Shown here piece by piece: positions 1-13,558 of a stretch of DNA of 13,558 nt (position 1 is the first letter of the stretch; every line of letters starts with the position of its first letter). The stretch comes from Pseudobacteriovorax sp. (GTDB lineage: Bacteria > Bdellovibrionota_B > Oligoflexia > Oligoflexales > Oligoflexaceae). The notes beneath the pieces are model-generated. The model saw nothing but the letters and a program-made list of their open reading frames with translations. It did not search any database and was not told where the DNA came from. A program made the translations under genes and the position numbers. Location of the stretch: the NCBI GenBank assembly GCA_050293845.1, contig JBNKNM010000152.1, positions 1-13,558 on the forward strand, in the 5' to 3' direction.

Positions 1-82
1 CTGGGATTCCTCGAATTCCTGCCTCTGTTAGATTGCTTCCAGCGAGGCTCCCGAGTGTAAATAAAATATGGAAGAGTCGCAT
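1..82 (-). CDS. 5' part of an exported protein, truncated by the window edge (MRLFHILFTLGSLAGSNLTEAGIRGIP...)
   Basis: Not in the ORF track. The ATG overlaps the upstream TGA (TGATG at 84-80), GGGGGAAG lies just upstream, and the frame is open to the window edge. The N-terminus looks like a Sec signal peptide (basic residue, hydrophobic core, TEA cleavage site). Confidence 0.7.
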   Translation of the reverse strand, partial: MRLFHILFTLGSLAGSNLTEAGIRGIP

Positions 83-360
83 CACACTTCCCCCGAACAA
101 TAATCTACACTATCCCAAAAAGATTTTCCTTTCTCACCGAGAGCGTTGAGAAACAATCTCAAATCTGAACTTTCGGTTAGTCCTAGATCTGTGATAACCT
201 TCTCCTTTTGTTTCATTTCACAGCTTTTTGGTGTATCGGGGTCAGGATCATTTGAATCGGCACCATCATCAGGCGGAGCATTACCACTTCCACCACCACA
301 GGCCATCACTAATGATAAACATACTGATACATGCAAGTTCCTATTTTTCAGGGAAATCAT
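82..360 (-). CDS. Small putative lipoprotein (92 aa)
   Basis: Basic N-terminus, hydrophobic stretch and lipobox-like VMA-C followed by GGGSG and an Asp/Pro-rich linker. Overlaps both neighbouring genes. Confidence 0.7.
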   Translation of the reverse strand: MISLKNRNLHVSVCLSLVMACGGGSGNAPPDDGADSNDPDPDTPKSCEMKQKEKVITDLGLTESSDLRLFLNALGEKGKSFWDSVDYCSGEV

Positions 361-793
361 ATTTTACCTTTCCTGATGGATAAGTCAACTTGGTCCATTT
401 AATACCATTTTTATCAATCACCTCCGTTTCAAGAGGATCATCTACTTTTATTTTCTGGAACTTAATCTTGGCCGCCTTCATTTTTTTCTGCTCAACTTCT
501 AGGTCCGATGCAGTGATCTGCTCCAGAGTTGATTCGAAGCGATTTAGGGCATTTTCAATCTTTTCCTTTTTTGCTAGATCAATCTTCTCAACTTGATCTT
601 GTTTAGTTTCAAGATTTGGTTTCGGTGTGAAGCCATTTAGACTTTCCTCTGGTTCCTTTTCAACAATCATCGATGAAATAGCTATCTTCTCGTTAGGGCT
701 GGCGCTATCTTGATAAAAATTAGTGACAAATATGGCCACGATGCAAATTACCCCAGCTAAGAGTACTAGAACTGATTTTTTATTGTTTCTCAT
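341..793 (-). CDS. Hypothetical single-pass membrane-anchored protein with coiled coil (150 aa)
   Basis: MRNNKK followed by about 20 hydrophobic residues, a charged helical middle and a short beta-like C-terminus. Overlaps the upstream gene's stop. Confidence 0.8.
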   Translation of the reverse strand: MRNNKKSVLVLLAGVICIVAIFVTNFYQDSASPNEKIAISSMIVEKEPEESLNGFTPKPNLETKQDQVEKIDLAKKEKIENALNRFESTLEQITASDLEVEQKKMKAAKIKFQKIKVDDPLETEVIDKNGIKWTKLTYPSGKVKYDFPEK

Positions 794-1778
794 CTACTTG
801 CCCACCTATGGGAATATATGAAGAAACGCTCCCAAGATTAAATTCAAAAATCGTCGCCTTGTTGTCTTCAACACACTGATTAAAATCAAATTCTTTAAAA
901 ACTGAATCAACGTCTTTCAAACAGGAAATCCCAATACTTTTGAGCCACAATTGGGAATAGAGTTTTGATCCTCTAACATCATTGGTCCAATCGATGAAAG
1001 TTTTCTTTTTTAGTTCAATATCCTCTAGTTCTGCTGCATTAACAGTCATTTGTGAAACTAACATTAAAGAAAGTTCTTTTAATTCATATCTAGCCATTTT
1101 ATGCCATAAGCCTTGTTTTCCCCAAAATAATGGATAAAGAGCATTTTCAATAGCGACTTCGCGAGTCTGCTTGATTAGTTTTCCAACAGTAAAAAGCTGG
1201 ACTGCTTCCCTGGCATCTGATCTATACAATATTTCAGCAGCTTCTCCATCTTCGCAACCAGTATTTTGATAGTTATTCAACATTAGGGTTGAAATCCTAT
1301 GAGCAGCAGCAATAATTGCCCGTTGTTGAGCTTCTTGTTTTGGAAATGGGACATTGTCATCGAGAAGTTTAGCAGTAACTGTAAGATCTTCACTTTTAGG
1401 TAAACTTGACCAACATCGGAGAAAAGAAGCAATCATTGGTTCCGTTAGATAGTCATTATTTACACTCGTTTCAGCCCTTCGATATATTCTAATTTGATTA
1501 TAATTAGTGTATTGAAAAACCTCATGATCGAATCTCATAGCCAAGTCTTCTGAGTCAACTACTTTTCCCAGAAAGGTGTCGACAATATATTCCGAAAGTT
1601 GCTTAGGTATCTTCGCTTCAGTGTTCGCTAAGTTCTTATCAATAATCGATACATAAATCAGTGGAGGTGAATTTTCGGCTTCGGTGTAGTTTGCTTTAAA
1701 TCCGAATTGCTGATCAGATGCCATTACAGATGCAGAACAAAAGACAGAAAGTAGCAAAGAAAAGTGTAGCTTGTTCAT
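780..1778 (-). CDS. Hypothetical secreted protein (332 aa)
   Basis: Long ORF with a Sec-type signal peptide (MNKLHFSLLLSVFCSASVMA). AAGG lies upstream of the ATG. No family recognised. Confidence 0.85.
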   Translation of the reverse strand: MNKLHFSLLLSVFCSASVMASDQQFGFKANYTEAENSPPLIYVSIIDKNLANTEAKIPKQLSEYIVDTFLGKVVDSEDLAMRFDHEVFQYTNYNQIRIYRRAETSVNNDYLTEPMIASFLRCWSSLPKSEDLTVTAKLLDDNVPFPKQEAQQRAIIAAAHRISTLMLNNYQNTGCEDGEAAEILYRSDAREAVQLFTVGKLIKQTREVAIENALYPLFWGKQGLWHKMARYELKELSLMLVSQMTVNAAELEDIELKKKTFIDWTNDVRGSKLYSQLWLKSIGISCLKDVDSVFKEFDFNQCVEDNKATIFEFNLGSVSSYIPIGGQVDEKQ

Positions 1779-1817
1779 AACAAAACCTTTTATATTTAAG
1801 AGTTAATAAATTTATTA

Positions 1818-1839
1818 GAAGGTTGGGAAGCCAACCTCC
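1818..1839 (-). terminator. Intergenic stem-loop (partial terminator or mRNA stabiliser)
   Basis: Minus strand GGAGGTTGG-CTTC-CCAACCTTC forms a 9-bp stem with one G.U pair, 6 nt after the stop of the 618-aa gene. The tail is AT-rich but not a clean U-run. Confidence 0.5.
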
Positions 1840-1845
1840 AGTAAA

Positions 1846-3702
1846 TTAGAATATGTCTTCAAATCCATCATCATTGGTATGAGTAGAATCATCCGCATTT
1901 TCTTGACAATCTGAAAATGGATCATCTTCATCACACACTTGATTTTCAATTCCTGTCTCTGTATCAGGGTCTTTAGACATTCTTGTACTACAAGCAACGA
2001 TTGACGAATCGATTGCTCCCGCCAGCCTTTTGCGGCAGGTAATAGGGAAACCATCAAATCCGAATTCAACAAGATTTGTTACGTTGGAATAGCTCACCGT
2101 CTTATGAATCTCAACTGTATCAATACTGGATGTATCCTCGATCCTTGTATGCCAATAAAAATCTCGTGCCTCAGAAACAATACCAACTGCTAATGCCTGC
2201 CAACCACCTATCGAACCACGAGCCCAATCCATAACAACTGTTAGATAGTCAGTTTTTCCATTATTCTGCGATTGATTTGCATGTCTATCAATTTCGCTCC
2301 TAACATATGCCTCGTATTGACTCTTATTGAATTCCGAGCGTTGAACACGTTCGTTATACATTTGCTGATAAAATTTCTCTAAGTCATGTAGGATATGCCA
2401 AGCTGCTGAATCCATTCCTCCTTCCGTAATATTGATATCACAGTATTCTTGTAGATTGTCTGAACCATATTTAATTTTATTGTAGGTATCACCATCATAG
2501 ATAATTGCACCGTCTTTGACGTCAGCACGGCCTTTGGCCCACCAACCATTTTTAAATTTACAGTCAAATTTCCCTTTGAAATCAGGAATTGAAACCCTGG
2601 CGTCGCCTACAAAGGTGACTGGCAATACAACGGCGCCCATTTTTGCCAATGCACCTGTCCTCGCACCGATTTCTGTGTATTCTACGACTACGGAGCATGA
2701 TCTTGATCCGCCGCACTCTCCACGAAGTTTAGGACTTTCTGATGATCTATTAACATCTCTAATCATAGTCACAGAAGGCTTAAGAGAATTTTTTGAGATC
2801 TGCGCTGATGGTTTTACATATAGCTTCTTAAGGCCAAGGCCTTTGACTGTGACATCTGGTCGAAGTTGGCGATAGATTGCAAAAACTTCTTTGTGACCTT
2901 CATCAAGTCCAGATTCAAGAATGACTTGTCTTAATCCAAACTGACCATTAGCTGCAGTTGCTCTTAATTCGGCAATGCCTCTCATAACTTGTCGAGGAAC
3001 ATTAGAGTCTAACATCGTAGAAATTTCTGGAGTAGGAGCGATACCAAGCCTAGAGAATTGATAAGTCAACCTATCGACGATTTGAGACTGCAACCCTCCT
3101 AAAGTTGCAAATTCTTCTGCACCCGCATCGACGATTTTTCTTAGGTCTCGATCTAAACTAGCAAGCCTTGTCTGTAAGGCTTTTTTCAGATCTTTAAGGT
3201 TTTCTACAGTATCTGGACTAGTATTCGGATCTGCAATATCCTCTACAATGTTCTCGATTTGCTTCGAAAGAGCTTTTTTCTCTTTAGTCAGCTCGAAGAA
3301 TTTATTGAGGTCGTAGTTGAAGGATTCAGCTACTCTATCGGTTTCGTCAATTACTGTTATAGCCCATGTAGCAAACGCTTCTGCCCCGACTGTCTCACGA
3401 TCTTGATTGGGCGCAAGAAAAGGAGCTGCATAGAACGTCTTTTGGATTTTCCGATCTTCAATTTCTTTTGTTTCGCTTGGATTCTTATGATCGGGGAAAA
3501 ATGACATTTCATTAAGAGCCTCAACAAAATCAGTAATCTCTTCCGCCGAAAAGTCATAGTCGTCCTGCAAAGCTTCGATAGTCTTCTTGTCGATGGGAAG
3601 AAAATCCTTCTTGTCAACTGGAGCAGCATGTAAGCTAGTTCCAAATAGTAATGACATTGGTAAGATGCCGCGAACTAGTAATGACTGTTTAATACTTTTC
3701 AA
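1846..3702 (-). CDS. Large secreted hypothetical protein (618 aa): N-terminal coiled coil, Cys-containing beta-rich C-terminal half, acidic tail
   Basis: TTG start with a strong RBS (AGAGGAG). Signal peptide ends in SLHA. Heptad-like region around ELTKEKKALSKQIENI...LASLDRDL. All 8 Cys are in the C-terminal half, and the end is Asp-rich. Confidence 0.9.
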   Translation of the reverse strand: MKSIKQSLLVRGILPMSLLFGTSLHAAPVDKKDFLPIDKKTIEALQDDYDFSAEEITDFVEALNEMSFFPDHKNPSETKEIEDRKIQKTFYAAPFLAPNQDRETVGAEAFATWAITVIDETDRVAESFNYDLNKFFELTKEKKALSKQIENIVEDIADPNTSPDTVENLKDLKKALQTRLASLDRDLRKIVDAGAEEFATLGGLQSQIVDRLTYQFSRLGIAPTPEISTMLDSNVPRQVMRGIAELRATAANGQFGLRQVILESGLDEGHKEVFAIYRQLRPDVTVKGLGLKKLYVKPSAQISKNSLKPSVTMIRDVNRSSESPKLRGECGGSRSCSVVVEYTEIGARTGALAKMGAVVLPVTFVGDARVSIPDFKGKFDCKFKNGWWAKGRADVKDGAIIYDGDTYNKIKYGSDNLQEYCDINITEGGMDSAAWHILHDLEKFYQQMYNERVQRSEFNKSQYEAYVRSEIDRHANQSQNNGKTDYLTVVMDWARGSIGGWQALAVGIVSEARDFYWHTRIEDTSSIDTVEIHKTVSYSNVTNLVEFGFDGFPITCRKRLAGAIDSSIVACSTRMSKDPDTETGIENQVCDEDDPFSDCQENADDSTHTNDDGFEDIF

Positions 3703-3766
3703 TGTTATCTCCTCTAGTACAACCTTGACATGTTTTAATTAATGCACTACATATAAAATTGTTTTT

Positions 3767-3812
3767 AGGCACTCCTACAATGTTCACTGGCCGGTGGTCT
3801 GTAGGGGAGCCT
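3767..3812. other. Imperfect inverted repeat in the predicted 5' leader
   Basis: AGGC-A-CTCCTACA ... TGTAGGGG-A-GCCT with an inner CAC/GTG stem. Confidence 0.5.
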
Positions 3813-3894
3813 TCCCTTAAAAATAGATAGCCTTTAGTTCTTTCCTCCTTCCCTCATCACTACCTATATAAAAAGTTAGCGCTTATCCTGTATA

Positions 3895-3910
3895 AGCAAT
3901 CTTCGTGCCA
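3895..3910 (-). promoter_or_regulatory. sigma54 (RpoN) -24/-12 promoter
   Basis: Minus strand TGGCACGAAGATTGCT matches the consensus TGGCACG-N4-TTGCW exactly. It is intergenic, oriented toward the 618-aa gene and next to a sigma54 activator gene. Confidence 0.9.
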
Positions 3911-4118
3911 TTGGGAGCAGTCTTTTATCTACGATGATTAGGCTGATATTTGAGACAATTTGGATACAATTACCCTAAGAGGGGAGTCAGTTTAGATGGT
4001 AGCGCTCATAAATTTTGTTTCCCATCCGATTTTTGATAGATTTAAAGGAGAAACACCGCAGCAGCATATAAAATAAATGTGTCGCTATGCATGCTAAAGC
4101 TGTTTTCAAACTGAACCA

Positions 4119-4233
4119 ACGAAGAATTGATCAGCTATTACTACATGGCATGAATATTACTAATATTATAGGTGATTATAGAAGTAGAGAGTGACGAAAA
4201 ATTGTCAGTTTAGGACGAAGAATTGATCAGCTA
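4119..4233. repeat. 19-bp exact direct repeat plus a variant copy; candidate upstream activator sequences
   Basis: ACGAAGAATTGATCAGCTA occurs at 4119-4137 and 4215-4233. A variant, ACGAAAAATTGTCAG at 4194-4208, overlaps the palindrome TGAC-N8-GTCA (4192-4207). Confidence 0.75.
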
Positions 4234-5663
4234 GAATGGCTATTTATATTGTACTTTTTTAACTTGCTTTTAAGGGTATTGCGGTGGGTCCCTATTTTAT
4301 CTGCCGTTCTAGCTATGCTTTGGTAGTGTTTGAGGAAGTAAGACAACATGCTTTTCTCGATAGAATCCATAAGGTCCTTAAAAGAAACATTTTCTTCCAG
4401 TACTACTCCTAGTATCTTATTAAGAGCGCTTTCGATATCCGGATCATCGGTGAAAAACTTTTCTTGATGAGTTTGAACTCTCTGACCGGGTGCGAGCATA
4501 GTCCTATATTCTGGCAAAAGCTCATCTGAAATAAGCCCTCCCGTTAGGTCTGCTTGCAAGACCATGCTTTGTAGGACTTTAAAGAGCTGTCTGATGTTAC
4601 CTTGCCAATAGTATTTTTTACATTTTTCTGTCAAATCAGATATTACCTGAGTACTAATCTTAATATCTTCTTTTAAAAAGAATAGTTTGATTAGAGTTGC
4701 TATATCATTCAGTCTTTCACGTAACGGTAGTAGGTTTATTTCAGCTCCTAATAGCCTAGTTCGTAAATCTAGCAAGAATTCACCTTTATCTACCATTATA
4801 TCGAGGTCTACGCCCGTTGCTACTATAAGCTGAAATGTAGAAGATAAGGTTTTTGTATCGCCAAGTCGTTCATATTTACCATCATTAAGCACCCTGAGCA
4901 GGGTTCGTTGACAGGCCAAGGGTAAAACATGGATTTCGTCTAGAAACAAAATTCCTCCGTCGGCATCTCCGATATATCCATTGGTAGTCTTATCAGCTCC
5001 GGTAAAAGCACCCTTCCTATGACCAAAGAAAAGTGAAGGCACCATGTCTTTAGGTATATTGGCGCAATTTACAGGGATAAAAGGGATATTCTTGCCTTTT
5101 TCTAGCGCTTGCCGCTTTTTGTGGATTAACTTAGCAATTTCTTCCTTACCAGTGCCCGTCTCGCCAATGATCGTAGTGCATATCTTGGTTTTAATGGCCA
5201 ACTGGGCTGCCGTCTTCCTAATGCTATCATCAATAACTATCCCGTCTTCGAATTCAGGGGTGAATTTTACTGACTTACCGCTTGACTGAAGTTCCTTAGA
5301 GCTATAGGCAGACTCGACTGCTATCAGTACATCGTTTACATTTACGATTGGCTTTTTTAAGAAGTAGTGGCTACCAAGAGCGAAGGTCTTACGGTATACA
5401 TCGATACTAGGGCTGGCAGACATTGATATGACAAGAGTGTTAGGGTGAAACTCCTTTGCATACTTTATTAGATCAAAACCTTCAGTACCCTCAAGAGTTA
5501 GGTGGATATCTGTAAGAATGATATTGATTACTGAGTTCTCTAGGGCGGTTTTGGCCTCTTCAAGGGTTTTTACCGCGAAAACCGTATAGTGCCCTCTCAG
5601 GATTTTGGCATAGCGCTCGTTTTGGTTTTCAGCATCTTCAACAAGTAGAAGAGATTTTGTCAT
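4227..5663 (-). CDS. sigma54-dependent enhancer-binding response regulator (NtrC family: REC, AAA+, Fis-type HTH)
   Basis: REC motifs LLLVED, ILTD and LKKP; Walker A GETGTGKE; GAFTGA; Walker B LFLDEI; sensor II WQGNIRQL; C-terminal HTH SIARTADKIGTHRNTLKSKL. ATG at 5663 is preferred over the track's GTG at 5684 because the REC domain begins immediately after it. Confidence 0.95.
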   Translation of the reverse strand: MTKSLLLVEDAENQNERYAKILRGHYTVFAVKTLEEAKTALENSVINIILTDIHLTLEGTEGFDLIKYAKEFHPNTLVISMSASPSIDVYRKTFALGSHYFLKKPIVNVNDVLIAVESAYSSKELQSSGKSVKFTPEFEDGIVIDDSIRKTAAQLAIKTKICTTIIGETGTGKEEIAKLIHKKRQALEKGKNIPFIPVNCANIPKDMVPSLFFGHRKGAFTGADKTTNGYIGDADGGILFLDEIHVLPLACQRTLLRVLNDGKYERLGDTKTLSSTFQLIVATGVDLDIMVDKGEFLLDLRTRLLGAEINLLPLRERLNDIATLIKLFFLKEDIKISTQVISDLTEKCKKYYWQGNIRQLFKVLQSMVLQADLTGGLISDELLPEYRTMLAPGQRVQTHQEKFFTDDPDIESALNKILGVVLEENVSFKDLMDSIEKSMLSYFLKHYQSIARTADKIGTHRNTLKSKLKKYNINSHSS

Positions 5664-5767
5664 ATTTTTCGTCCCAAAAATCACATTTCAGATCGATTGA
5701 TAGAGAATAGTCTTTAAAGAGGTTATAGTTTGATTTGAGCCATAATCCTAAATAACGACTTTAAAAG

Positions 5768-5953
5768 TTAGTTAATCATTGATTTAGCTTTCTTTGTTTC
5801 TTGTACTAATTTTTGACTAACCTTTTCTAGCTTTTCGATGAATACGGGACCGCTTATTTCTCCTTCAGAACTTTCTGCTATGACGATTTGAAGTTCAATG
5901 ATGAGGTTTTCGGCATAATGTCTTAGACTTGAAATAGCTTTATTTTGGTTCAT
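5768..5953 (-). CDS. 61-aa helical protein, possible His phosphotransfer (DHp-like) protein
   Basis: ATGA overlap with the kinase stop and a purine-rich RBS (AAGGAAAGAG). Two amphipathic helices and a single His in LRHYAEN. The function is inferred. Confidence 0.65.
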   Translation of the reverse strand: MNQNKAISSLRHYAENLIIELQIVIAESSEGEISGPVFIEKLEKVSQKLVQETKKAKSMIN

Positions 5954-8676
5954 ATCTCTTTCCTTTGAACCCCCGCCATTAATGCTTCAGCTATATTGTC
6001 TTGCTTCATTAGAGTCTTTCGTACAAAAAAATCCATGTCATTGGTCTTTCCTATAGAACGGTCTGTGGACATTCCTACTGCAATAATCTTTGGAATTTTT
6101 TCCTTAGCATAGGATATGACTTTTAAACCTTCTGAAGGATCATCATACTCTTTGGACAAATGTATATCAGAAAGGAGGAAATCGTAAGGTTTAGAGTTTA
6201 AAAATTCTACAGCTTCGTCGTAGCTACCAGCAACATCACAGTTGATCATTTTCGCAGCTTGCTTTTGCATGAAATTCCTTTGAACCATTTCATCTTCGAC
6301 GATTAAAAGATATTTATCTTTAAGAGTTGCTTTAAAATTTATTAAACTCATCTTCTGGTTTTCCTCGATTGTATGCTTTTTATATGTCCCTAAGAGGCTA
6401 TTTAGGGCCTCAGAAGGCATCTTGGGTAAGACTCCTTTAAATACTCCCGGTTCCACTTCATTGGAACTGGAACACAGATATATAGGAACTTCCGGTGCCA
6501 AGTTCTTGAGATGAATTGCAACATCCATGCCTGTTTTCCCATCTTCAAGATAATAATCGGTTACAACCGCGGAAACTGTTTCAAAATAATTTGTAGCGCT
6601 AGCTACTTGCAAAAATTTGCCAAAACTTGTAAATACCTCACCTGAATTTGCATCTTTAAATAAGGCTTCCCATGCTGATGCGAGGATAGGGCTATCTTCG
6701 ACTACGACAATTTTACCTTGTATTTTAGGGGCGGAGCTTCCAGCTTCCAAGCGCATCTGGTCATCGCTTAAATTTAGGGCCGAGGCTAGAATTTTTAAAA
6801 GGTGAAGCCTTGTCATGGGTTTGGGAAGAAACAGATCAGCACCAGCTTTAAGGGCTTGAGACTGGTATTCTAGAGCTCCTCGGTTGGAGTGAATGCAGAT
6901 CTTTGCTTTTGGCATGTATTTACGGATGGCGGGCAAGGCGTCAAAGCCGTTAAAGTGACCTCTACCTAGGTCAACGTCAAGAATAACTACATCAAATTCT
7001 AAGTCACCAAGTTCGGCTATAACAGCTTCAGCACTTTCAAATTCCTCGACCTGTAGTTTATCCGCTAATTTCTCGCTTATCTCCATGTGACTTCTAAGGT
7101 GGCGCCTGTATATTGCTTCATCGTCAATGATGGCTACTTTTAGGTTGTTACCTGTGGCCTTTATAATATTATATTCGATCACCTGCTCTTCTGCAGAGTC
7201 TACTTCGGAGTGTTTAGCAATAGGGGAGTCTTCTATTTCTACTTTTATAGAAGCCGCCTTGAAATACTCTTGACTGGATCTTAGTAGCTGCACTTTACTA
7301 TCATCAATTTCGCCTGCCATCGGTAGAGTAAAGTAAAATTCTGTTCCTTTTTCTTCTGAAGACTCGCACCAGATTTTTCCACCGTGGGCTTCTACAACTT
7401 GTTGGGCTATGGCTAAACCTAGACCCGTGCCACCCTTTTTGCCCTTGGTGAAAAAGGCTTCGAAGAGTTGTTTTCGATCATCATCTGGTATATAAGTGTT
7501 GGAGTTTCCAAGGCAGATTTCGACTTTGTCGCCTTTTTCCTTGCTGTGAAACCAAAGCTCCCCTTTACCTTTCATATGTTCAACGGCATTACCGATAATA
7601 TTGGCAAAAACTCGTCCGACTTTTAATCGATTAACATTTACTTTATGGCTATGCTCTAATTTATATTGGATATCAATAGTGGCATCTTCATTAAAACGGA
7701 ATAGATTTTTTAAGGTTTCGTTAAGTATAGCTGATGTAGAGTCAGACTCAGCGATAAGTTCACTGTCTGTTTTTCCTACTTCCATAACATCTTGGATCAT
7801 ACCGTTGACGCTGTCTAGGGATGAAGAGATATCGGGAATGCTGTCTTTAAGTATTTTTTTGACTTGATCTGTATTTTTTGCTGTGGAAACTATTTCAATA
7901 AGAGCTGAGACTAAAGTGAAGGGCTTTCTTACATCGTGGGCTAACATCTGAGTTGTTTTGGCTATTGCACTCTGTCTTTCTAGATTTCTAACACTTTGAA
8001 ACAAACTAATTACCGATAATCTGATGGGATCAAATTCCACATACGGTGATATTAAACTAGCCCCGTGATTAACGTTAGTAACTTGAACAGAAAAGTCTTT
8101 AATTTCTTTCTCAATACCCTTAAATACATGTTTAGAAAGTACACTAGTAATTGAAAGAGCGATGATTAGGGTTGCAAATACTAGAAAAAATACGACCCAA
8201 CTAAAATCTTGTTGCTGTATTTCTAGGTATAAAAAATATCTTTGATTATTTCCACTGACAAAGTTAAATAAATAAGTAGGTTTATTCTCATTTAATCTAA
8301 AAAACACAGCTCTATTTTTCGTAAGCGATGCAAAATTACTTGAAATATCAAGTAATTTTTCTTCGCCTGGTATACGCTGAATTTCGTAGCCGTCATGAGA
8401 AAACACTCTAAATTGGGATAATCCGTGTAATTTTTTTTGGTTCAATATTTCAATTTTGGCATAACGAGGAGATGTTGTTCGAATTAATTTATCAAAATAT
8501 TTAACAACTGTTTCGGCTTTATATAAATAGACTTCTTCTTGTTTAAGGTTTTCAATATAGTAGTAGCCAATGGTGAGTATCATAGAAATAAAAAAGGAGC
8601 TAAGTCCTAAAATTCCTAAAAATGCACGAAATGAAACTTGATAAAGAGATTTTTTACTTATCTTCTGCAAAATCAA
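5950..8676 (-). CDS. Membrane hybrid sensor histidine kinase with three C-terminal receiver domains
   Basis: Two TM helices flank a periplasmic domain of about 120 aa. H-box MLAHDVRKPF (H247), N-box NIIGNA, F-box FEAFFT, G2 GTGLGL. Three REC domains: IIDDE/ILDVD/PKP, VVEDS/VTDYY/PK and IVEDE/LSDIH/RK. Confidence 0.95.
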   Translation of the reverse strand: MILQKISKKSLYQVSFRAFLGILGLSSFFISMILTIGYYYIENLKQEEVYLYKAETVVKYFDKLIRTTSPRYAKIEILNQKKLHGLSQFRVFSHDGYEIQRIPGEEKLLDISSNFASLTKNRAVFFRLNENKPTYLFNFVSGNNQRYFLYLEIQQQDFSWVVFFLVFATLIIALSITSVLSKHVFKGIEKEIKDFSVQVTNVNHGASLISPYVEFDPIRLSVISLFQSVRNLERQSAIAKTTQMLAHDVRKPFTLVSALIEIVSTAKNTDQVKKILKDSIPDISSSLDSVNGMIQDVMEVGKTDSELIAESDSTSAILNETLKNLFRFNEDATIDIQYKLEHSHKVNVNRLKVGRVFANIIGNAVEHMKGKGELWFHSKEKGDKVEICLGNSNTYIPDDDRKQLFEAFFTKGKKGGTGLGLAIAQQVVEAHGGKIWCESSEEKGTEFYFTLPMAGEIDDSKVQLLRSSQEYFKAASIKVEIEDSPIAKHSEVDSAEEQVIEYNIIKATGNNLKVAIIDDEAIYRRHLRSHMEISEKLADKLQVEEFESAEAVIAELGDLEFDVVILDVDLGRGHFNGFDALPAIRKYMPKAKICIHSNRGALEYQSQALKAGADLFLPKPMTRLHLLKILASALNLSDDQMRLEAGSSAPKIQGKIVVVEDSPILASAWEALFKDANSGEVFTSFGKFLQVASATNYFETVSAVVTDYYLEDGKTGMDVAIHLKNLAPEVPIYLCSSSNEVEPGVFKGVLPKMPSEALNSLLGTYKKHTIEENQKMSLINFKATLKDKYLLIVEDEMVQRNFMQKQAAKMINCDVAGSYDEAVEFLNSKPYDFLLSDIHLSKEYDDPSEGLKVISYAKEKIPKIIAVGMSTDRSIGKTNDMDFFVRKTLMKQDNIAEALMAGVQRKEI

Positions 8677-10132
8677 GATCGCTTATATCGATAGTTTCAT
8701 CATAAAATTTTACTCTTTCTGCGCTGATATTCTTAGTGAACAAAGCTATTGAAGAAAAATGCGCTAGAGGAAGATATAATCCTTCTTGTCCTGCATTTAA
8801 TAGCATTTCAGCTAATTTTTTATCTCTCTCAATATCATTTGTGATTTTCTTGAGTTTTATATATTGTTGCTGAATCAAATTATCGTAATCGGCTATAAAC
8901 TTGAACTGATTTTCGAGAACCATATTAAGCCAAATGACGGGAGAAGGATCAGCAGCGCCAAAAGTATATAAAAGAAAATCATACTTATCGTTTTCATTCA
9001 ATAAAGTAGATAAGCTTATTGGGATAAATTTTAAATTGACTCCGAATTTACTAACCGCATTTTTTATTTCGTTATTTATTGATTTGCGGCTTAAGCTAGC
9101 TACTTTGTAAATTTTCTTAGGAGAGAATGACTTTTTAGAGGTATGTTTAATTGGTCTATGCAAAATAAAGCCCGGAGGTTGTAGAGATTTGGCAAAATAA
9201 ACATTTTCAAAACGATCAAAAGTTATTGACTCTTTATCTAACTTTTCTCCCAAGTATCTTACAACATTTTTCCCTTCTTCTATGTTACTTGAAGTTGGGA
9301 TCATCAGTAGCACACGATCGATAGGCCTAGTCCAAAAATTGAATTTAACTTCAAGTCCTTTTAGGAGGCTCTTTTCGACAAAATTTTGGTCCATTATCAA
9401 ATTCGGCCATGCCGTTTCATTTAACAAATTTTTCAGATTAAGACCTTGATCCGGGAAATCTCGCATTCTTACAATTTGTGGCATGGATGCTCTATAATCG
9501 TAATAATTTCTATTAGAGGCCAGCGTTAGTTCTTCAGTGCTATGATGCTTAACATAATATGGTCCTAGTGAAATATCATTTCGTATAACGACCATCTCTT
9601 TATTAATTTGATCTTCTCGGATAATAGGTATAGTCGCTGCTGCTAAACGCTTGAATAGCTCAACTCCTGGCTCTTTTACGGCAAATTCGAATTTACTTGG
9701 CGACTTTATTATTAAGCCGCCTTTCAAAATCTCCGTGCTAAGGAGAGAAGATATACCATCGTACTGATTTGGCGCAACTTGTTTCAATCTACCCAAACTC
9801 AAGGCTATATCATTTGATGTAAACTCTTTTCCATCCGACCATCTGATATTATGATCAATTTCTAATAGATACCTTTTCGTTTGTTCATCGTATTTCCAAG
9901 AACTTAGTAGCTTACTTTCCGGCGTTGAGTCACCAGTTAGTTCAAACAAAGAATTAAATAGACAGAGAGTCAGATTGTATTCTGACATTGTATTAAAGTT
10001 TACAGGGTCGAAAGGCAACTTATACGAGTTGTAAATACGGATTTCGTTCATCTCCACTCGGCTTTCTGTCGCCAACGACCTTATAGGAGTGATAGCTACT
10101 ATCACTAAGATTACTAATTGTGCCCAATACAT
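8654..10132 (-). CDS. Family-5 extracellular solute-binding protein (OppA/DppA-like), with no permease genes adjacent
   Basis: Signal peptide, then the family-5 N-terminal pattern FDP...LFNSLF...LLSSW...IRWSDGKEFTSNDIALSL and GPYYV. RBS AGGA lies 8 nt upstream. Confidence 0.9.
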   Translation of the reverse strand: MYWAQLVILVIVAITPIRSLATESRVEMNEIRIYNSYKLPFDPVNFNTMSEYNLTLCLFNSLFELTGDSTPESKLLSSWKYDEQTKRYLLEIDHNIRWSDGKEFTSNDIALSLGRLKQVAPNQYDGISSLLSTEILKGGLIIKSPSKFEFAVKEPGVELFKRLAAATIPIIREDQINKEMVVIRNDISLGPYYVKHHSTEELTLASNRNYYDYRASMPQIVRMRDFPDQGLNLKNLLNETAWPNLIMDQNFVEKSLLKGLEVKFNFWTRPIDRVLLMIPTSSNIEEGKNVVRYLGEKLDKESITFDRFENVYFAKSLQPPGFILHRPIKHTSKKSFSPKKIYKVASLSRKSINNEIKNAVSKFGVNLKFIPISLSTLLNENDKYDFLLYTFGAADPSPVIWLNMVLENQFKFIADYDNLIQQQYIKLKKITNDIERDKKLAEMLLNAGQEGLYLPLAHFSSIALFTKNISAERVKFYDETIDISDLDFAEDK

Positions 10133-10299
10133 GATGCAGTTCCTGATTTTTGAATCATTATATCAGAAAAATCTTCCTGACATACATTTTGAGATGTATC
10201 AACCTTTTGGGAAGGCTTGCAAAGATTAATTTCACGTTCTTCGATTTGTGATTGTGGAGAAATAGTAGAAACAATAAATACAATAAGCTCAATAATCAT
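10114..10299 (-). CDS. 61-aa peptide, candidate YcaO substrate (RiPP precursor)
   Basis: Starts 11 nt after the YcaO stop with its own RBS (AAGGGA) and overlaps the binding-protein start. Hydrophobic N-terminus, acidic middle and C-terminal KSGTASCIGHN. Confidence 0.7.
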   Translation of the reverse strand: MIIELIVFIVSTISPQSQIEEREINLCKPSQKVDTSQNVCQEDFSDIMIQKSGTASCIGHN

Positions 10300-10310
10300 A
10301 AATAATCCCT

Positions 10311-11225
10311 TTACGGTAATGGATGTGGCTCCAAATTCGCATTGATAGAGTAACTTTTGTTTATATATTTAAATACATAGCTTGGCACGTCTTTTCCTAC
10401 CCATAGCTGAATAGCATCTTTACAAACAGCCTTTGTAATATAAGTAGGATTTCGACTTAATTCTATAACCTCTGGTTTCAAAGAAATCTTGCTATACTTT
10501 TTAACTTTTTTTTGAAAAAACCAAGAAGGAACCTGATGGTGATACCAGTATCTGGCATGATTAATGAGTCCGTCTGCCCAGTCATTTTTATTTGAAAGAC
10601 GCACGATATGTAAAGTATAGAAAGCTTCTGAAACTGCTTTATATACCGACTCTTCGGGATACTTCTTATACGCAGTTCCTACAATAAATCCACCCGTTTC
10701 TTGGTTAATTATTAAGGCTATTTTCACATCAATTGATGACAAATTTGTTGAAAGTATTTTCAACTTATGATTAATGCCTGACAAATAATTAATAAAGCTT
10801 CTTATACAATTGTATTTAGTTACGTCTTCGTCAAAAGGTGTTTTAGTCAACCAGTGTCTTAAAAAAGCATCACGTTCCAAAAGCTCTCTTATTGCCGCTT
10901 CACTACTTTTCCTTTGGTTTTCATGAGAGGCAACTCCATTTGACGATAATTTGCCAAACCTTTTTTTGTTTTCAAAACAACACTCTCTCTCCAGTAATTC
11001 ATTAATTGCTTTTAATTTAGCAAAACATTTTGATTCGTCTTCGCCGTATCCAAAGATCTTACCATAGATAGGGTGCTCGTATGAGACAATATAACGATTG
11101 CCTACCGGATCATTCTCACAAAGCGTAATCTTACCTAACTCTAAATTCGACTGCTTCCATTTAGCCAATACTTTAGAGTACTTTGGCCTTCTGAAGGGGT
11201 CGAATTTATTCATAAGTTTAAGCAA
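10311..11225 (-). CDS. YcaO-family ATP-dependent peptide backbone-modifying enzyme (compact, 304 aa)
   Basis: YcaO ATP/Mg motifs GYG...AKLKAINELLER, SSNGVASH...AIRELLERDA and GTA...VYKAVSEA. C-terminal PHPLP (PxPxP). RBS AGGGTG precedes the TTG. Confidence 0.9.
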   Translation of the reverse strand: MLKLMNKFDPFRRPKYSKVLAKWKQSNLELGKITLCENDPVGNRYIVSYEHPIYGKIFGYGEDESKCFAKLKAINELLERECCFENKKRFGKLSSNGVASHENQRKSSEAAIRELLERDAFLRHWLTKTPFDEDVTKYNCIRSFINYLSGINHKLKILSTNLSSIDVKIALIINQETGGFIVGTAYKKYPEESVYKAVSEAFYTLHIVRLSNKNDWADGLINHARYWYHHQVPSWFFQKKVKKYSKISLKPEVIELSRNPTYITKAVCKDAIQLWVGKDVPSYVFKYINKSYSINANLEPHPLP

Positions 11226-11808
11226 ATAATCACCCTATTTTGTGTGTATAGTATGCTGGCTAACTTTTGTGTCTCTACTATATTCATTTGTGATAGTCAA
11301 TATGAAATAGATGTTTCGCAGATTCTTGTTATGAAATTAACATTTTAAACTAAATTGGTCGTCAGCAACTTAATACTTCATTATCAATTAACATTTCTTA
11401 ATTGTATCTCTTACTCTGGATAACTCATTAATAAATTTAAATACATCTTTCAAACAGAAGCTTGCGAGATAGAACTGACTTACCTGTTTTACTTCTTATT
11501 GCGCTGCTGGGTCTGAAAAGGAGTTTATGAATGGTAAAATTTTTTTGATACTTTTCTCGGAAGATAGTTGGTTAATTTAGGTCCTTGATTAATCTTATTC
11601 CCATTTGACTCATACAGAGGACACATATACTCGTAAAAGTACGTTAGATACTGTTGATTTAGACGTAATACATTGGAAAGAAAATATCGCATCGGAGTGA
11701 GCACTCAATTTAGATAGTCAAGATTATCACTGACATGCAATAACCCCGACTAAATTCTCAATGTACCTACTTCCTTGCTAACGAGAAGAATGAGACCAAA
11801 ACCGCATT

Positions 11809-12093
11809 TTATGCAGCTTTTGTGTTTTCGAATGTCGATAATATTTCCCTAAAAGCCTCCAGTGCCGCTAGCGAAAGATCAAATCCCTCTGATACTGAAA
11901 AATCTTTAAGTTCCGCTGGTACTAAAGTTAGCCTACTGAACGCTTGAGACAATGCTTCACGAAAATCCTTGCTTTCAAAAAGCTTTAAAACATCGGTAAT
12001 TTGCAGTCCATCCCCCGAAACTTCCTTTCCAATTAGTACTCCTAGAGTTGTTATTAATGCAATAACATCCTGGGTTTCATTAATTCCGGCCAT
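11809..12093 (-). CDS. Phage-associated hypothetical protein (94 aa, helical, amphipathic)
   Basis: RBS GAGGT and last gene of the phage-like run. The pattern GINET...DG.QI.D...VPAELKD recalls small uncharacterised phage proteins (recollection, not verified). Confidence 0.75.
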   Translation of the reverse strand: MAGINETQDVIALITTLGVLIGKEVSGDGLQITDVLKLFESKDFREALSQAFSRLTLVPAELKDFSVSEGFDLSLAALEAFREILSTFENTKAA

Positions 12094-12100
12094 CTATACC

Positions 12101-12400
12101 TCACTTTAAATTATGTTGACTCCTATTAACGGAGTTTAAACTTACCGATTTTTCGAGTCGCTTCACAAGATCTGCTAAAAGTCTTAACAATAGAGCATTA
12201 TCTTTGGAAAATTTTTCAGACTCAGGAAGCTCAGCTATGATTTCTTTAATCTTTCTGTAAGCTGTGGCCGCCCTTGACCATTGCATCCATTTGCGGTGTT
12301 TGCTCCCACTAAGGCCCTGTGACTTAAATCTTGATTTCGGTAAACTGTGAGAATGGATCTCAGCGTAGTATTTAGAGTTCATAGTTAACTTTTTTACCAC
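12101..12400 (-). CDS. Basic hypothetical protein in the phage-like run (start uncertain: GTG 12400 or ATG 12382)
   Basis: Fills the gap between two co-oriented genes, with an overlap on one side and a 7-nt gap on the other. Confidence 0.6.
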   Translation of the reverse strand: MVKKLTMNSKYYAEIHSHSLPKSRFKSQGLSGSKHRKWMQWSRAATAYRKIKEIIAELPESEKFSKDNALLLRLLADLVKRLEKSVSLNSVNRSQHNLK

Positions 12401-13020
12401 AACCTTTTGTCGATTTCTGAATCTAGAGCACTAACAAAACGATTTTCCGCTGCAGAAGTCATTTTTTCTTTAGCTTTTTCACGCCTAAGCATAGATGCTA
12501 TAGAGGCGATAGTGCTGCGAATTATTAGCCATTTTCTATTTGTTTCCTTTGATTTCCAGACATGTAGCCTTGATCCCCTATCTTTCTGGATAAATTTCTT
12601 ATGAAAAATATAGGTCCGATGTCCCAGGGTAATGCCTACAACTTGTGTTCTTTTATCTCGCGGAATTCCCTTTTGTTTAATTGGTTTACGTTCAGAACTG
12701 AGGAATTTGATCGCTGAAAGACGTTTTTTGTTCGCAAACAGTTTTGAGGAGATGCCAGCTTCAATACCCCCGACACTTTTCACAAGACTAGTAGTAAGAA
12801 CAGAATCTACTGAAGGTTTTGAATAAGGATCTGCTGGCCCATATTTAGGACCTCTCCTAGGTAAGCCATATTTTTCTCTAGTAATCTCGCTGGAAACTTT
12901 TTTAGCGGCATTTATCGATTTATTTTGAGCATTTTTAATCGCTTGCAAATATGCTTTCATTCCCTCTTTCTTCAGCAGGAGAGGTAATTTTGATTTATCA
13001 AGTGAAAGCTGAATGTCCAT
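12394..13020 (-). CDS. Phage lambda gpZ-like (minor tail/neck) protein
   Basis: Very basic protein of about 208 aa with gpZ-like segments AIKNAQNKSINAAKK..SEITREKYGL, RLSAIKF and FIQ..RGSRLHVW, and a C-terminal helix ending LDSEIDKRL. The ATG overlaps the upstream stop (TGATG). Confidence 0.65.
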   Translation of the reverse strand: MDIQLSLDKSKLPLLLKKEGMKAYLQAIKNAQNKSINAAKKVSSEITREKYGLPRRGPKYGPADPYSKPSVDSVLTTSLVKSVGGIEAGISSKLFANKKRLSAIKFLSSERKPIKQKGIPRDKRTQVVGITLGHRTYIFHKKFIQKDRGSRLHVWKSKETNRKWLIIRSTIASIASMLRREKAKEKMTSAAENRFVSALDSEIDKRLW

Positions 13021-13346
13021 CAATTTTTCCGTTCAAGATGGGTCAATCTTTCCGATATGGCTTCCAAATTGCCATTAATCATTTCGAGAGATTTGGCATG
13101 CAGGTCGAGTTTTGCCGAGAGCTTATTGATACAGGATGTAAAATGCTGCAAAGACTGAATAAAGGATTCATAAGATCTATTATTTCGCTCTTCTACTTTT
13201 CCAATAGCTCTTTCAAGCCGCATTATGTCGCGATCGTATGTGGTTGGTGGTGGGGTGGGATTTTTACTGTCAAAATACATCCTGTAAATGAGGACGATAG
13301 CAACTAAAAAAGGGCCTCCTGTTTTAAATAGTTCAAGTTCGGCCAA
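13020..13346 (-). CDS. Small membrane protein, one TM plus coiled coil (holin/XhlA-like), 108 aa
   Basis: Start reassigned to TTG 13346, which has the RBS GGGAG upstream. N-terminal TM GGPFLVAIVLIYRMYF followed by a heptad-repeat C-terminus, in a phage context. Confidence 0.65.
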   Translation of the reverse strand: MAELELFKTGGPFLVAIVLIYRMYFDSKNPTPPPTTYDRDIMRLERAIGKVEERNNRSYESFIQSLQHFTSCINKLSAKLDLHAKSLEMINGNLEAISERLTHLERKN

Positions 13347-13395
13347 TTTCTTTCTCCCAACAAACCTCAACCTACATTGCCGGAACCATAATATA

Positions 13396-13557
13396 CTACT
13401 GGCGGCTATCGTGAGAAGACGAAGCTTTGCAGAAAATATTAAAAAATTCATTTATCTCTAGCGCTACGTAAACTTTGCTCCGGTTTCTTCGAAACGCTAA
13501 AATAGGTATTTCTTTTCCTGTTACATGACTTTTTGCTTGCTTTAATGCCTCCCAAAT
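13396..13557 (-). CDS. 3' end of a phage PD-(D/E)XK nuclease / Holliday junction resolvase-like protein (T5 D14-like)
   Basis: Not in the ORF track because the start is outside the window. Translation IWEALKQAKSHVTGKEIPILAFRRNRSKVYVALEINEFFNIFCKASSSHDSRQ* fits the family's C-terminal pattern (W.A..QA ... P....F.RNR....V). Confidence 0.75.
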   Translation of the reverse strand: MWEALKQAKSHVTGKEIPILAFRRNRSKVYVALEINEFFNIFCKASSSHDSRQ

Positions 13558-13558
13558 A

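Follow-up and report, generated by a model that had tools for sequence, protein, structure and literature searches.

The window analysed here is a 13,558-nucleotide stretch of Pseudobacteriovorax sp. DNA (contig JBNKNM010000152.1 of assembly GCA_050293845.1), which forms the entire contig C152 of the metagenome-assembled genome (MAG) G000. The genome comprises 6.68 Mb in 741 contigs, with a completeness of 96.4% and an estimated contamination of 1.2%. The minus strand of the window encodes a hybrid histidine kinase of 908 residues (positions 5950–8676), which contains HisKA, HATPase_c, and three receiver domains and is preceded by a group of genes that we call the cassette. The cassette begins with the gene of a predicted 304-residue miniature YcaO enzyme (10311–11225) and continues with a 61-codon open reading frame (ORF; 10114–10299), which is a candidate for a precursor or signal peptide, and with the gene of a 492-residue periplasmic solute-binding protein (SBP) of family 5 (8654–10132). 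The sensor part of the kinase (residues 1–232; 7981–8676), composed of two membrane segments, a periplasmic stretch of about 115 residues, and a linker, is treated as the last component of the cassette. The rest of the kinase (residues 233–908; 5950–7980) is referred to as the core or body. It contains the DHp, the catalytic domain, and the three receivers assigned by Pfam, and is present in multiple copies in the genome. The genes of a 61-residue protein, a sigma-54-dependent regulator, and a 618-residue protein follow on the same strand. The original prediction, made from the sequence of the window, was that the cassette had been recombined as a unit onto a resident kinase core, at a step in GC content inside the kinase gene.

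Junction between the sensor and the core

The GC contents counted by hand for the original prediction were reproduced, with values of 40.8% at positions 6781–7980, 29.9% at 7981–8700, and 30.5% at 8701–9120. A search with residues 233–908 of the kinase identified copies of the core on four other contigs of the same genome, C294 (83% identity), C342 (85%), C286 (85%), and C146 (57% over residues 231–906). The comparison set consisted of 61 genomes of the order (60 besides G000), with 21 same-family genomes among them; the best core match outside G000 is 54% identical and belongs to G002. Over residues 233–460, the cores of C294, C342, and C286 are 83–88% identical to that of the window, and the core of C146 is 69% identical. 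Nothing can be aligned before residue ~233 in the five-way alignment, and the similarity begins at SAIAKTTQMLAHD (residues 233–235). BLASTN homology to the paralogues ends at positions 7958 (C294), 7985 (C342), 7964 (C286), and 7965 (C146), and the identity in a 60-nt sliding window climbs from 0.23–0.40 to 0.77–0.88 across the seam. Because the DNA homology to the paralogues stops at 7958–7985, the GC step sits on a homology boundary. This boundary is within the junction zone (7936–7985, minus strand), which extends from the start of the DHp helix to the phosphorylated histidine, His247 (SAIAKTTQMLAH). The step was originally placed just before the H-box helix.

The genes next to the core copies differ from locus to locus. 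C294 contains a gene weakly similar to SBPs and an ORF of 109 residues; C342 contains a binding protein and a 294-residue HExxH protein homologous to one in the module of contig C228; C286 contains a methyltransferase, a full YcaO, a binding protein, and TfuA; and C146 contains a binding protein only. When forced into alignment, the sensors of the paralogues share 16–24% amino acid identity. A conserved core with different upstream modules, which had been expected in related genomes or at paralogous loci, was found at paralogous loci of the same genome. The kinase belongs to a lineage-specific expansion, since its closest kinase-domain relatives are paralogues from its own genome and these differ in the upstream sensing region. 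The kinase body has 19 matches with E ≤1e-40 in the same-genus genome G001, none of which exceeds 47% identity; the kinase-body family is greatly expanded in this genus. A segment of contig C27 of G000 (2054–2719) resembles the receiver part of the kinase (44%), contains four internal stop codons, and is probably a decayed kinase copy.

The distribution of homology supports different histories of the cassette and the kinase body, which would have been joined at the H-box. We consider it probable that the kinase gene is a mosaic that arose by recombination where the DHp/H-box helix begins, at window positions ~7936–7985. Upstream of the seam, an old, single-copy, AT-rich cassette composed of the mini-YcaO, the Cys-peptide ORF, the family-5 binding protein, and the sensor would have been joined to the kinase. 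Downstream of it, there would be a young multi-copy kinase body, which the genome has attached to at least four unrelated sensing cassettes.

Synonymous sites of the core are unsaturated among the window, C294, C342, and C286; over residues 233–460, the proportion of synonymous differences (pS) is 0.46–0.60 and the synonymous divergence (dS) 0.7–1.2. Comparisons with C146 are saturated, with a pS of 0.83–0.88. The similarity of the core copies is patchy. The identity between the window and C294 is 0.95–0.97 at core nucleotides 360–450 and 0.61–0.73 at 600–720, and that between the window and C286 is 0.58 at nucleotide 270 and 0.92–1.00 from 600 to the end of the contig. A tract of 32 concordant polymorphic sites between the window and C286 has a permutation p of 0.0002, and a local-incompatibility test on the core copies gave a p of 0.0005. 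The core copies still exchange sequence tracts.

The genome contains DNA copies, 65–83% identical, of the segments up to position 7985 (core) and from 11775 onwards, and none of 7986–11774. The single-copy block (7986–11774), with a GC content of 33.2%, is flanked by these multi-copy segments. Its low GC content reaches ~11774, beyond position 11225, where the stretch described originally ends. The paralogous loci have no upstream flank in common, which a double crossover would need, and the DNA that they share is that of the core only. No tRNA was found around the cassette, and the flanking direct repeats found there are only short, at chance level. The segment to the right of the block (11775–13558, minus strand) is the end of a prophage-like element with at least five copies in the genome. 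DNA copies are located on C35 (83% identity over 1779 nt), C423, C327, C206, and C4, and protein copies were also found. The 209-residue product of the element matches phrog_27 (tail completion/Neck1; E 1.6e-7), and the copy on C35 adjoins genes of Rha, a DnaC/IstB-like protein, and a phage PDDEXK protein. On C294, the cassette is next to a multi-copy region that encodes an S24 (LexA/CI-like) peptidase.

The upstream cassette

Profile comparisons and a predicted structure indicate that the 304-residue protein is a genuine, but miniature, YcaO. It matches PF02624 over residues 88–235 with 35.8 bits (cut-off 25.7), and the profile of its family matches the YcaO chain 6pe3 (MJ1094) at an E of 1.2e-19 and six other YcaO chains. 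The AlphaFold model of the protein has a predicted local distance difference test (pLDDT) score of 87.8 and a predicted TM-score (pTM) of 0.87. The 41 best Foldseek hits of the model are all YcaO chains, with a probability of 1.00; among the hits listed the TMq is 0.44–0.67, and LynD (4v1v), MJ1094 (6pe3), and McbD reach 0.55–0.67. Residues E76, E114, E117, and R118 are invariant in an alignment of 18 sequences, E79 and E200 are conserved in at least 90% of them, and the protein ends in ...PHPLP. The conserved acidic residues and the proline-rich C-terminus are candidates for the ATP/Mg-binding residues and the C-terminal motif of YcaO proteins. Pfam searches of the 13 window proteins identified no E1-like, Ocin-ThiF, or TfuA partner and no dehydrogenase, which would place the locus among those of thiazole/oxazole-modified microcins (TOMMs), linear azol(in)e-containing peptides (LAPs), or thioamides. 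Among the paralogous cassettes, TfuA is present only in C286.

The mini-YcaO has 17 relatives among 5.8 billion proteins, the best of which is 37% identical. Nine of the 61 genomes contain a match to it, the best one being in G058:C206 (locus L020, Oligoflexales), with 34% identity along almost the entire protein. No closer cassette turned up when metagenomes were scanned with the YcaO alignment, the best match being 42% identical over 82 residues. The 80 metagenome loci with YcaO relatives include 16 with short and 64 with long YcaO frames. A binding protein or kinase neighbours the YcaO at eight of these loci, all with short frames, and at none of the 64 with long ones.

The 61-codon ORF has the sequence AAGGG 8 nt before its ATG, and it belongs to no Pfam or PHROG family. 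All three loci of the subfamily, the window, G058:C206, and L077, a 7-kb MAG contig labelled Chryseolinea, contain a small ORF between the YcaO and the binding protein, with 47 residues in G058:C206 and 49 in L077. The three products have a hydrophobic N-terminus and a cysteine 3–5 residues from the end (TASCIGHN, TGTCGVS, and TMTCRS). Two metagenome loci with the gene order peptide, binding protein, YcaO, kinase also contain small Cys ORFs with hydrophobic N-termini. A small ORF of this kind adjoins the binding protein at all five loci inspected.

The binding protein matches PF00496 (E 1.4e-15) over residues 71–229 only and has a hydrophobic N-terminal segment at residues 2–24. Its nearest relatives are those of G058:C206 (35%) and L077 (37%). 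The hydrophobic segments of the kinase sensor comprise residues 14–38 and 155–185. Within the 61 genomes, the sensor has a single relative, in G058:C206 (27%, E 0.0014), and none was found among the 5.8 billion proteins. The only other sensor hit, P0020, obtained with HMMER among 1.84 billion representatives, is a protein of 85-residue repeats with a score summed over the repeats, and was rejected as spurious. Prediction of a complex of the binding protein (residues 24–492) with the periplasmic stretch of the kinase (residues 42–157) gave a score of 0.00, which has no bearing either way.

G058:C206 thus contains the nearest relatives of the YcaO, the peptide ORF, the binding protein, and the sensor (26–27% identity for the latter), and it has the same gene order and architecture. 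L077 (positions 1–7062), which was identified by a profile scan of genome contigs with a five-sequence YcaO alignment, contains a YcaO (36%), the 49-codon ORF, and a binding protein (37%), and no kinase. This trio, the closest one outside the order, is located between a transposase-like ORF and three ORFs resembling those of the insertion sequence (IS) IS66. The labels are based on the sizes and order of the ORFs, and the trio may be in a mobile context. The shared gene order and relationships support the view that the YcaO, the peptide ORF, the binding protein, and the sensor are a unit that travelled together. The unit therefore provides an evolutionary argument that its four components work together. 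Contig C230 (locus L034) of G000 encodes, at 1938–4754, a 938-residue kinase with a family-5 binding-protein domain fused to it as the N-terminal sensor. This fusion supports a functional link between such binding proteins and kinases.

Origin of the probable mosaic and alternative explanations

In a tree of binding proteins from 12 loci, the window is a sister of G058:C206 (support 100/99), and the binding protein of C342 is a sister of that of C228 (100/99), the cores of C342 and C228 being unrelated. When tested on the binding-protein data, the clade that the four close copies form in the core tree is rejected, with a log-likelihood difference of 297 and a p-value of the approximately unbiased test (p-AU) of 0.0009, and the core data reject the pair of the window and G058 (p-AU 0.011). 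Separate trees of sensor and core were expected to disagree if the kinase had been recombined, and the trees of the binding protein and of the core are incongruent.

The chimera on C286 provides direct evidence at the sequence level for the re-joining of sensors and cores at the H-box in G000. The cassette of C286 (locus L071, 1536–5383) and that of G002:C44 (locus L094, 7941–11770) are 57–64% identical and have the same gene order. The C286 sensor is 62% identical to that of the G002:C44 kinase (149/242), whereas its core is only 29% identical to the G002:C44 core (63/214) and 83% identical to the core of the window. The unrelated G002 core and the C286 core share AIAQATQMLAHD and diverge directly after the histidine. 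The conserved AIAQ(T/A)TQMLAHD stretch is thus suggested as the crossover site.

The cassette of C286 and G002:C44 is a distinct type, in which a methyltransferase, a full-size YcaO, a family-5 binding protein, and TfuA precede the kinase. YcaO and TfuA constitute a thioamide-type pair, and the cassette is conserved between two genera. An apparent gap in the C286 cassette, considered as a possible precursor ORF, proved to be the unannotated N-terminus of its YcaO. In a third type of cassette, the YcaO is replaced by a ~300-residue HExxH protein without a Pfam family, whose gene is flanked by those of the binding protein and the kinase. The HExxH proteins of C342 (locus L070, 2150–3034) and C228 (locus L033, 3975–4895) are 27% identical (E 2e-22), and profile comparison revealed no likeness of them to YcaO. 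Starting at the second membrane segment, the kinases of C342 and C228 are only 24% identical, a value that speaks neither for nor against a shared sensor.

For the window locus, we lean towards the cassette as the newcomer because of two observations. The core, the 61-residue gene, and the regulator are syntenic with G002:C46, with identities of 68% for the DHp and catalytic domain, 49%, and 45–47%, respectively. Matches to the cassette are sparse in the same family, as the sensor query matched none of the 21 genomes and the YcaO query gave weak matches (E 1.5e-8 to 2.5e-16) in three of them. At C286, it is the core, not the cassette, that appears to be the newcomer.

The alternative that the core is the mobile part is possible, but less probable. 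One hybrid core type would have spread over resident cassettes from the shared H-box motif, by gene conversion or duplication, and in the window the cassette would be resident and the core the newcomer. In favour of such a spread, C286 combines a cassette and sensor orthologous to those of G002:C44 with a core of the window type, the exchange tracts among the cores are significant, and the cores are young and the cassettes old. The occurrence of AIAQATQMLAHD in the unrelated G002 core would offer a ready crossover site. However, the core of the window is followed by the same 61-residue gene and sigma-54 regulator as in G002:C46, the cassette queries found little in the same family, and the nearest relatives of the cassette come from another family and from an IS-flanked contig.

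It is unlikely that the four paralogues are instead alleles of one locus in a mixed population, binned into one MAG in the manner of pherotypes. The agr analogy predicts such a layout, and contigs C342 and C286 merge with the window through exact 77-nt overlaps. However, the summed contig depth in run X1 is 9.2–9.6 for the cassette, which equals the single-copy downstream depth of 8.2 and is no fraction of it. The depth rises to 28–43 at positions 6552–7827, where the paralogue contigs are also found, and the extra contigs stack only there. The depth fits paralogues better than alleles, contig depth being only a hint. In addition, the four contigs have no upstream flanking sequence in common, the estimated contamination is low, and the 19 core matches in the same-genus genome G001 also argue against alleles. 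Run X2 contains identical pieces of the cassette, and no pherotype alleles were seen among strains in the few samples available, X2 and X4 carrying the same cassette; runs X3 and X4 hold only small shares and say nothing on habitat or absence.

The null tests of composition bear on a further explanation, according to which there was no recombination and a membrane-rich, weakly constrained sensor drifted AT-ward beside a constrained core of equal age. The GC content of the genome is 41.2% and that of contig C152 is 37.4%. The sensor (7981–8676) contains 29.7% GC, with values at codon positions 1, 2, and 3 (GC1, GC2, and GC3) of 0.39, 0.28, and 0.22, whereas the DHp and catalytic parts have 0.49–0.51, 0.34–0.35, and 0.33–0.35. 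Amino-acid content, reflected in codon positions 1 and 2, accounts for about 60% of the GC step, and synonymous sites at position 3 account for the other 40%. The GC3 expected from the codon usage of the genome and the amino acids of each part is 0.36 for both sensor and core, and the observed values are 0.213 for the sensor (z −4.67) and 0.312 for residues 233–460 (z −1.47). The step in GC3, the absence of which would have spoken for amino-acid composition as the only cause, thus exists, and the deficit survives the amino-acid correction. Among 1004 ORFs of at least 464 codons, a GC rise this large from the first to the second 232 codons occurs in 0.4% (4), and a GC3 rise this large in 0.8%; among 7553 windows of 232 codons, 0.19% have a GC content as low as that of the sensor. 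With a value of 0.096, the step is the largest among 32 kinases of the genome with an N-terminal region of at least 100 residues. The likelihood change point is at position 8068 (residue 203), ~90 nt upstream of the homology boundary.

Drift without recombination would be in line with the share of the step in codon positions 1 and 2, with the family-wide lower GC content of sensors, and with two other kinases of the genome that have steps of 0.093 and 0.094. It is nevertheless very unlikely, as the GC3 deficit remains after correction, synonymous changes in the core have not reached saturation among paralogues whose sensors and binding proteins are unrelated or from separate clades, and C286 is a chimera. 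We interpret the GC step, with good confidence, as a compositional seam between two histories. The low GC content extends into the binding-protein gene, as originally proposed, with the C-terminal half of the gene inside the 30% trough, but it is not uniform up to 11225: it is 30.1% at 7986–9150 and 35.3% at 9151–11225. The flanks have 39.8% (5950–7985) and 38.6% (11775–13558).

Several observations weigh against the mosaic reading or its proposed direction. The support of the four-copy clade in the core tree is low (47/42), although the paths are short (0.14–0.22). In all five copies of the genome, the sensors are GC-poorer (0.30–0.35) than the cores (0.38–0.40), and the kinases of relatives have GC steps of 0.005–0.05, with a GC3 step of at least 0.09 in two of four. 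Composition by itself is therefore weak evidence for a mosaic. The nearest relatives of the cassette have 39–42% GC, not 30–35%, and no AT-rich donor is known, so that the low GC content may have arisen in place. Since sensors are GC-poorer family-wide and the nearest cassettes have such GC contents, the low GC does not prove that the donor was foreign. An accessory block that evolves fast may have drifted towards AT, the core may be held near the genome mean by selection or biased conversion, or both may apply. Contigs C294, C342, and C286 end inside the core, and exact 77-nt overlaps such as those of C342 and C286 with the window are typical of assembly-graph junctions. The link of the cassette to the DNA beyond ~7690 (6832–7691) runs through repeats and could be mis-joined, and the synteny argument for the direction is therefore weakened.

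It is extremely unlikely that the junction itself is an artefact of assembly or binning, for although the MAG is fragmented and its contigs are broken by repeats, the reading frame is unbroken across the seam, the segment ~7272–7985 differs from every paralogue and places the seam in uniquely assembled DNA, a Logan contig of run X1 made by another assembler, possibly from the source sample and the same reads, spans 7691–8849 with 0 differences, and G058:C206 has the same architecture. A dispersed repeat of ~76–77 nt, 95–100% identical, is located at the ends of C228, C27, C342, and ~30 other contigs of G000 and seems to break the assembly.

The original prediction of a recombination of the cassette as a unit onto a resident core was thus supported with regard to the mosaic and the unit, whereas a resident core is only the somewhat more probable reading for the window, the core on C286 being a newcomer. 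Our preference for this direction is slight, because C286 shows the opposite one and the link at 6832–7691 crosses repeats in a short-read assembly.

Proposed signalling chain and comparison with known systems

The interval between the kinase and the regulator contains the gene of the conserved 61-residue protein (5768–5953). The product of the equivalently placed gene in G002:C46 shares 49% identity with this protein, and a copy on C27 shares 37%. Residues 11–12 are an invariant Arg-His in the three sequences. The protein has no Pfam family, and no Hpt domain was found at the locus; our guess is that it is a minimal phosphotransfer protein for the three-receiver kinase. The sigma-54-dependent response regulator (4227–5684) has REC, AAA+, and HTH domains (PF00158, E 2.6e-47; Response_reg; HTH_50/HTH_8) and is 45–47% identical to those downstream of the G002:C46 and C44 kinases. 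A perfect promoter-like site, TGGCAC-N5-TTGC, at 3896–3910 (minus strand) is the only sigma-54 match without mismatches in the window; the 10 matches with up to two mismatches are near the number expected by chance (mean 6.8). The gene of the 618-residue protein (1846–3702) is located 194 nt downstream of the site and is likely to be the output of the regulator. Neither the 618-residue nor the 332-residue downstream gene has a counterpart next to the G002 loci, and no sigma-54 promoter was found before the YcaO gene (minus strand, 11226–11775).

From this arrangement, we infer a signalling role of the peptide and the cassette. The cytoplasmic mini-YcaO would modify the small peptide near its C-terminal cysteine. 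The modified peptide would be exported and then caught by the binding protein, which would signal through the matching sensor to the hybrid kinase. The kinase would act on the sigma-54 regulator, and the regulator on the promoter at 3896–3910. The chances that the whole chain, from a YcaO-modified peptide to the sigma-54 promoter, is correct appear evenly balanced. If the signal is a peptide made by the cell itself, the locus would represent a new kind of peptide signalling in predatory bacteria of the Gram-negative type. We speculate, with considerable doubt, that the bacterium runs an array of plug-in peptide-signal channels, in which cassettes are spliced at the H-box onto a common chassis of hybrid kinase and sigma-54 regulator. 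Each channel would be self-contained, with an enzyme to mark a small Cys peptide that is exported, a binding protein of its own, and a sensor to match. Gene conversion would keep the chassis alike, and channels would be gained by cassette swaps, some of them between lineages on mobile DNA.

The mini-YcaO shares the fold and the central ATP-grasp-like region with characterised YcaO enzymes (MJ1094, 6pe3/6peu; M. kandleri, 6ci7; LynD, 4v1t; McbD, 6gos); acidic residues are conserved in its own family, and its C-terminus is proline-rich. It differs from these enzymes in being only ~300 residues long, partnerless, and encoded in a sensor operon rather than in a biosynthetic cluster. A full-text literature search found no paper in which YcaO or TfuA is connected with both a sensor kinase and a binding protein.

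The LuxP-LuxQ-LuxU-LuxO system of Vibrio connects a periplasmic binding protein with a hybrid kinase, a relay protein, and a sigma-54-dependent response regulator. According to Pfam, a binding protein, a hybrid kinase, and a sigma-54 regulator are also present in the window. Unlike in the Vibrio system, the binding protein is of family 5 (the peptide type), the kinase has three receivers, a conserved 61-residue protein is present with no recognised Hpt, and the signal would be a ribosomal peptide. ChiS is likewise a hybrid kinase. In Vibrio cholerae, a periplasmic binding protein without a transporter, CBP, controls this neighbouring sensor kinase (PMC12704726, as far as the available part of the article describes it). 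In the same part of that article, the ligand is a chitin oligosaccharide, and neither an enzyme or peptide gene nor a set of paralogous cassettes is mentioned (PMC12704726).

Lineage-specific expansion of kinases with shuffling of upstream sensor domains is established (Alm, Huang, and Arkin 2006, PMC1630713), and the available part of that survey leaves the mechanism of the expansions open. As in the expansions described there, G000 contains recent paralogous cores with different N-terminal sensing regions in one genome (PMC1630713). In contrast to what that part of the survey describes, a multi-gene cassette of enzyme, peptide ORF, binding protein, and sensor is exchanged here rather than a domain only, the position of the seam is narrowed to ~50 nt at the H-box, and ongoing exchange of tracts can be detected between the cores. 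This exchange offers a mechanism for such expansions. The locus provides a nucleotide-level view of two-component rewiring, in which a cassette of signal and receptor is placed on a reusable kinase body at the DHp/H-box. The joint is near the point used by protein engineers to construct chimeric kinases.

The hypervariable region of the staphylococcal agr locus comprises agrB, agrD, and the sensor half of agrC, and stops within the kinase gene, short of the conserved cytoplasmic part. As in the window, the variable block joins a signal-processing enzyme, a peptide gene, and the sensor half of a kinase. No AgrB, AgrC-type, or LytTR domain was identified by Pfam in the window, where YcaO, SBP_bac_5, HisKA/HATPase_c/REC, and Sigma54_activat were found instead. 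The window also differs from agr in its additional periplasmic binding protein, and the variants are paralogues of one genome with unrelated cassettes (YcaO, YcaO with TfuA, or HExxH), not alleles of strains. The parallel with agr that was drawn originally thus holds for the layout of a block ending inside the kinase gene, but not for pherotype alleles that differ from strain to strain, since the variants are on different contigs of one genome. If the array of plug-in channels exists, it would be a Gram-negative, multi-channel counterpart of agr pherotype diversification, contained inside a single genome.

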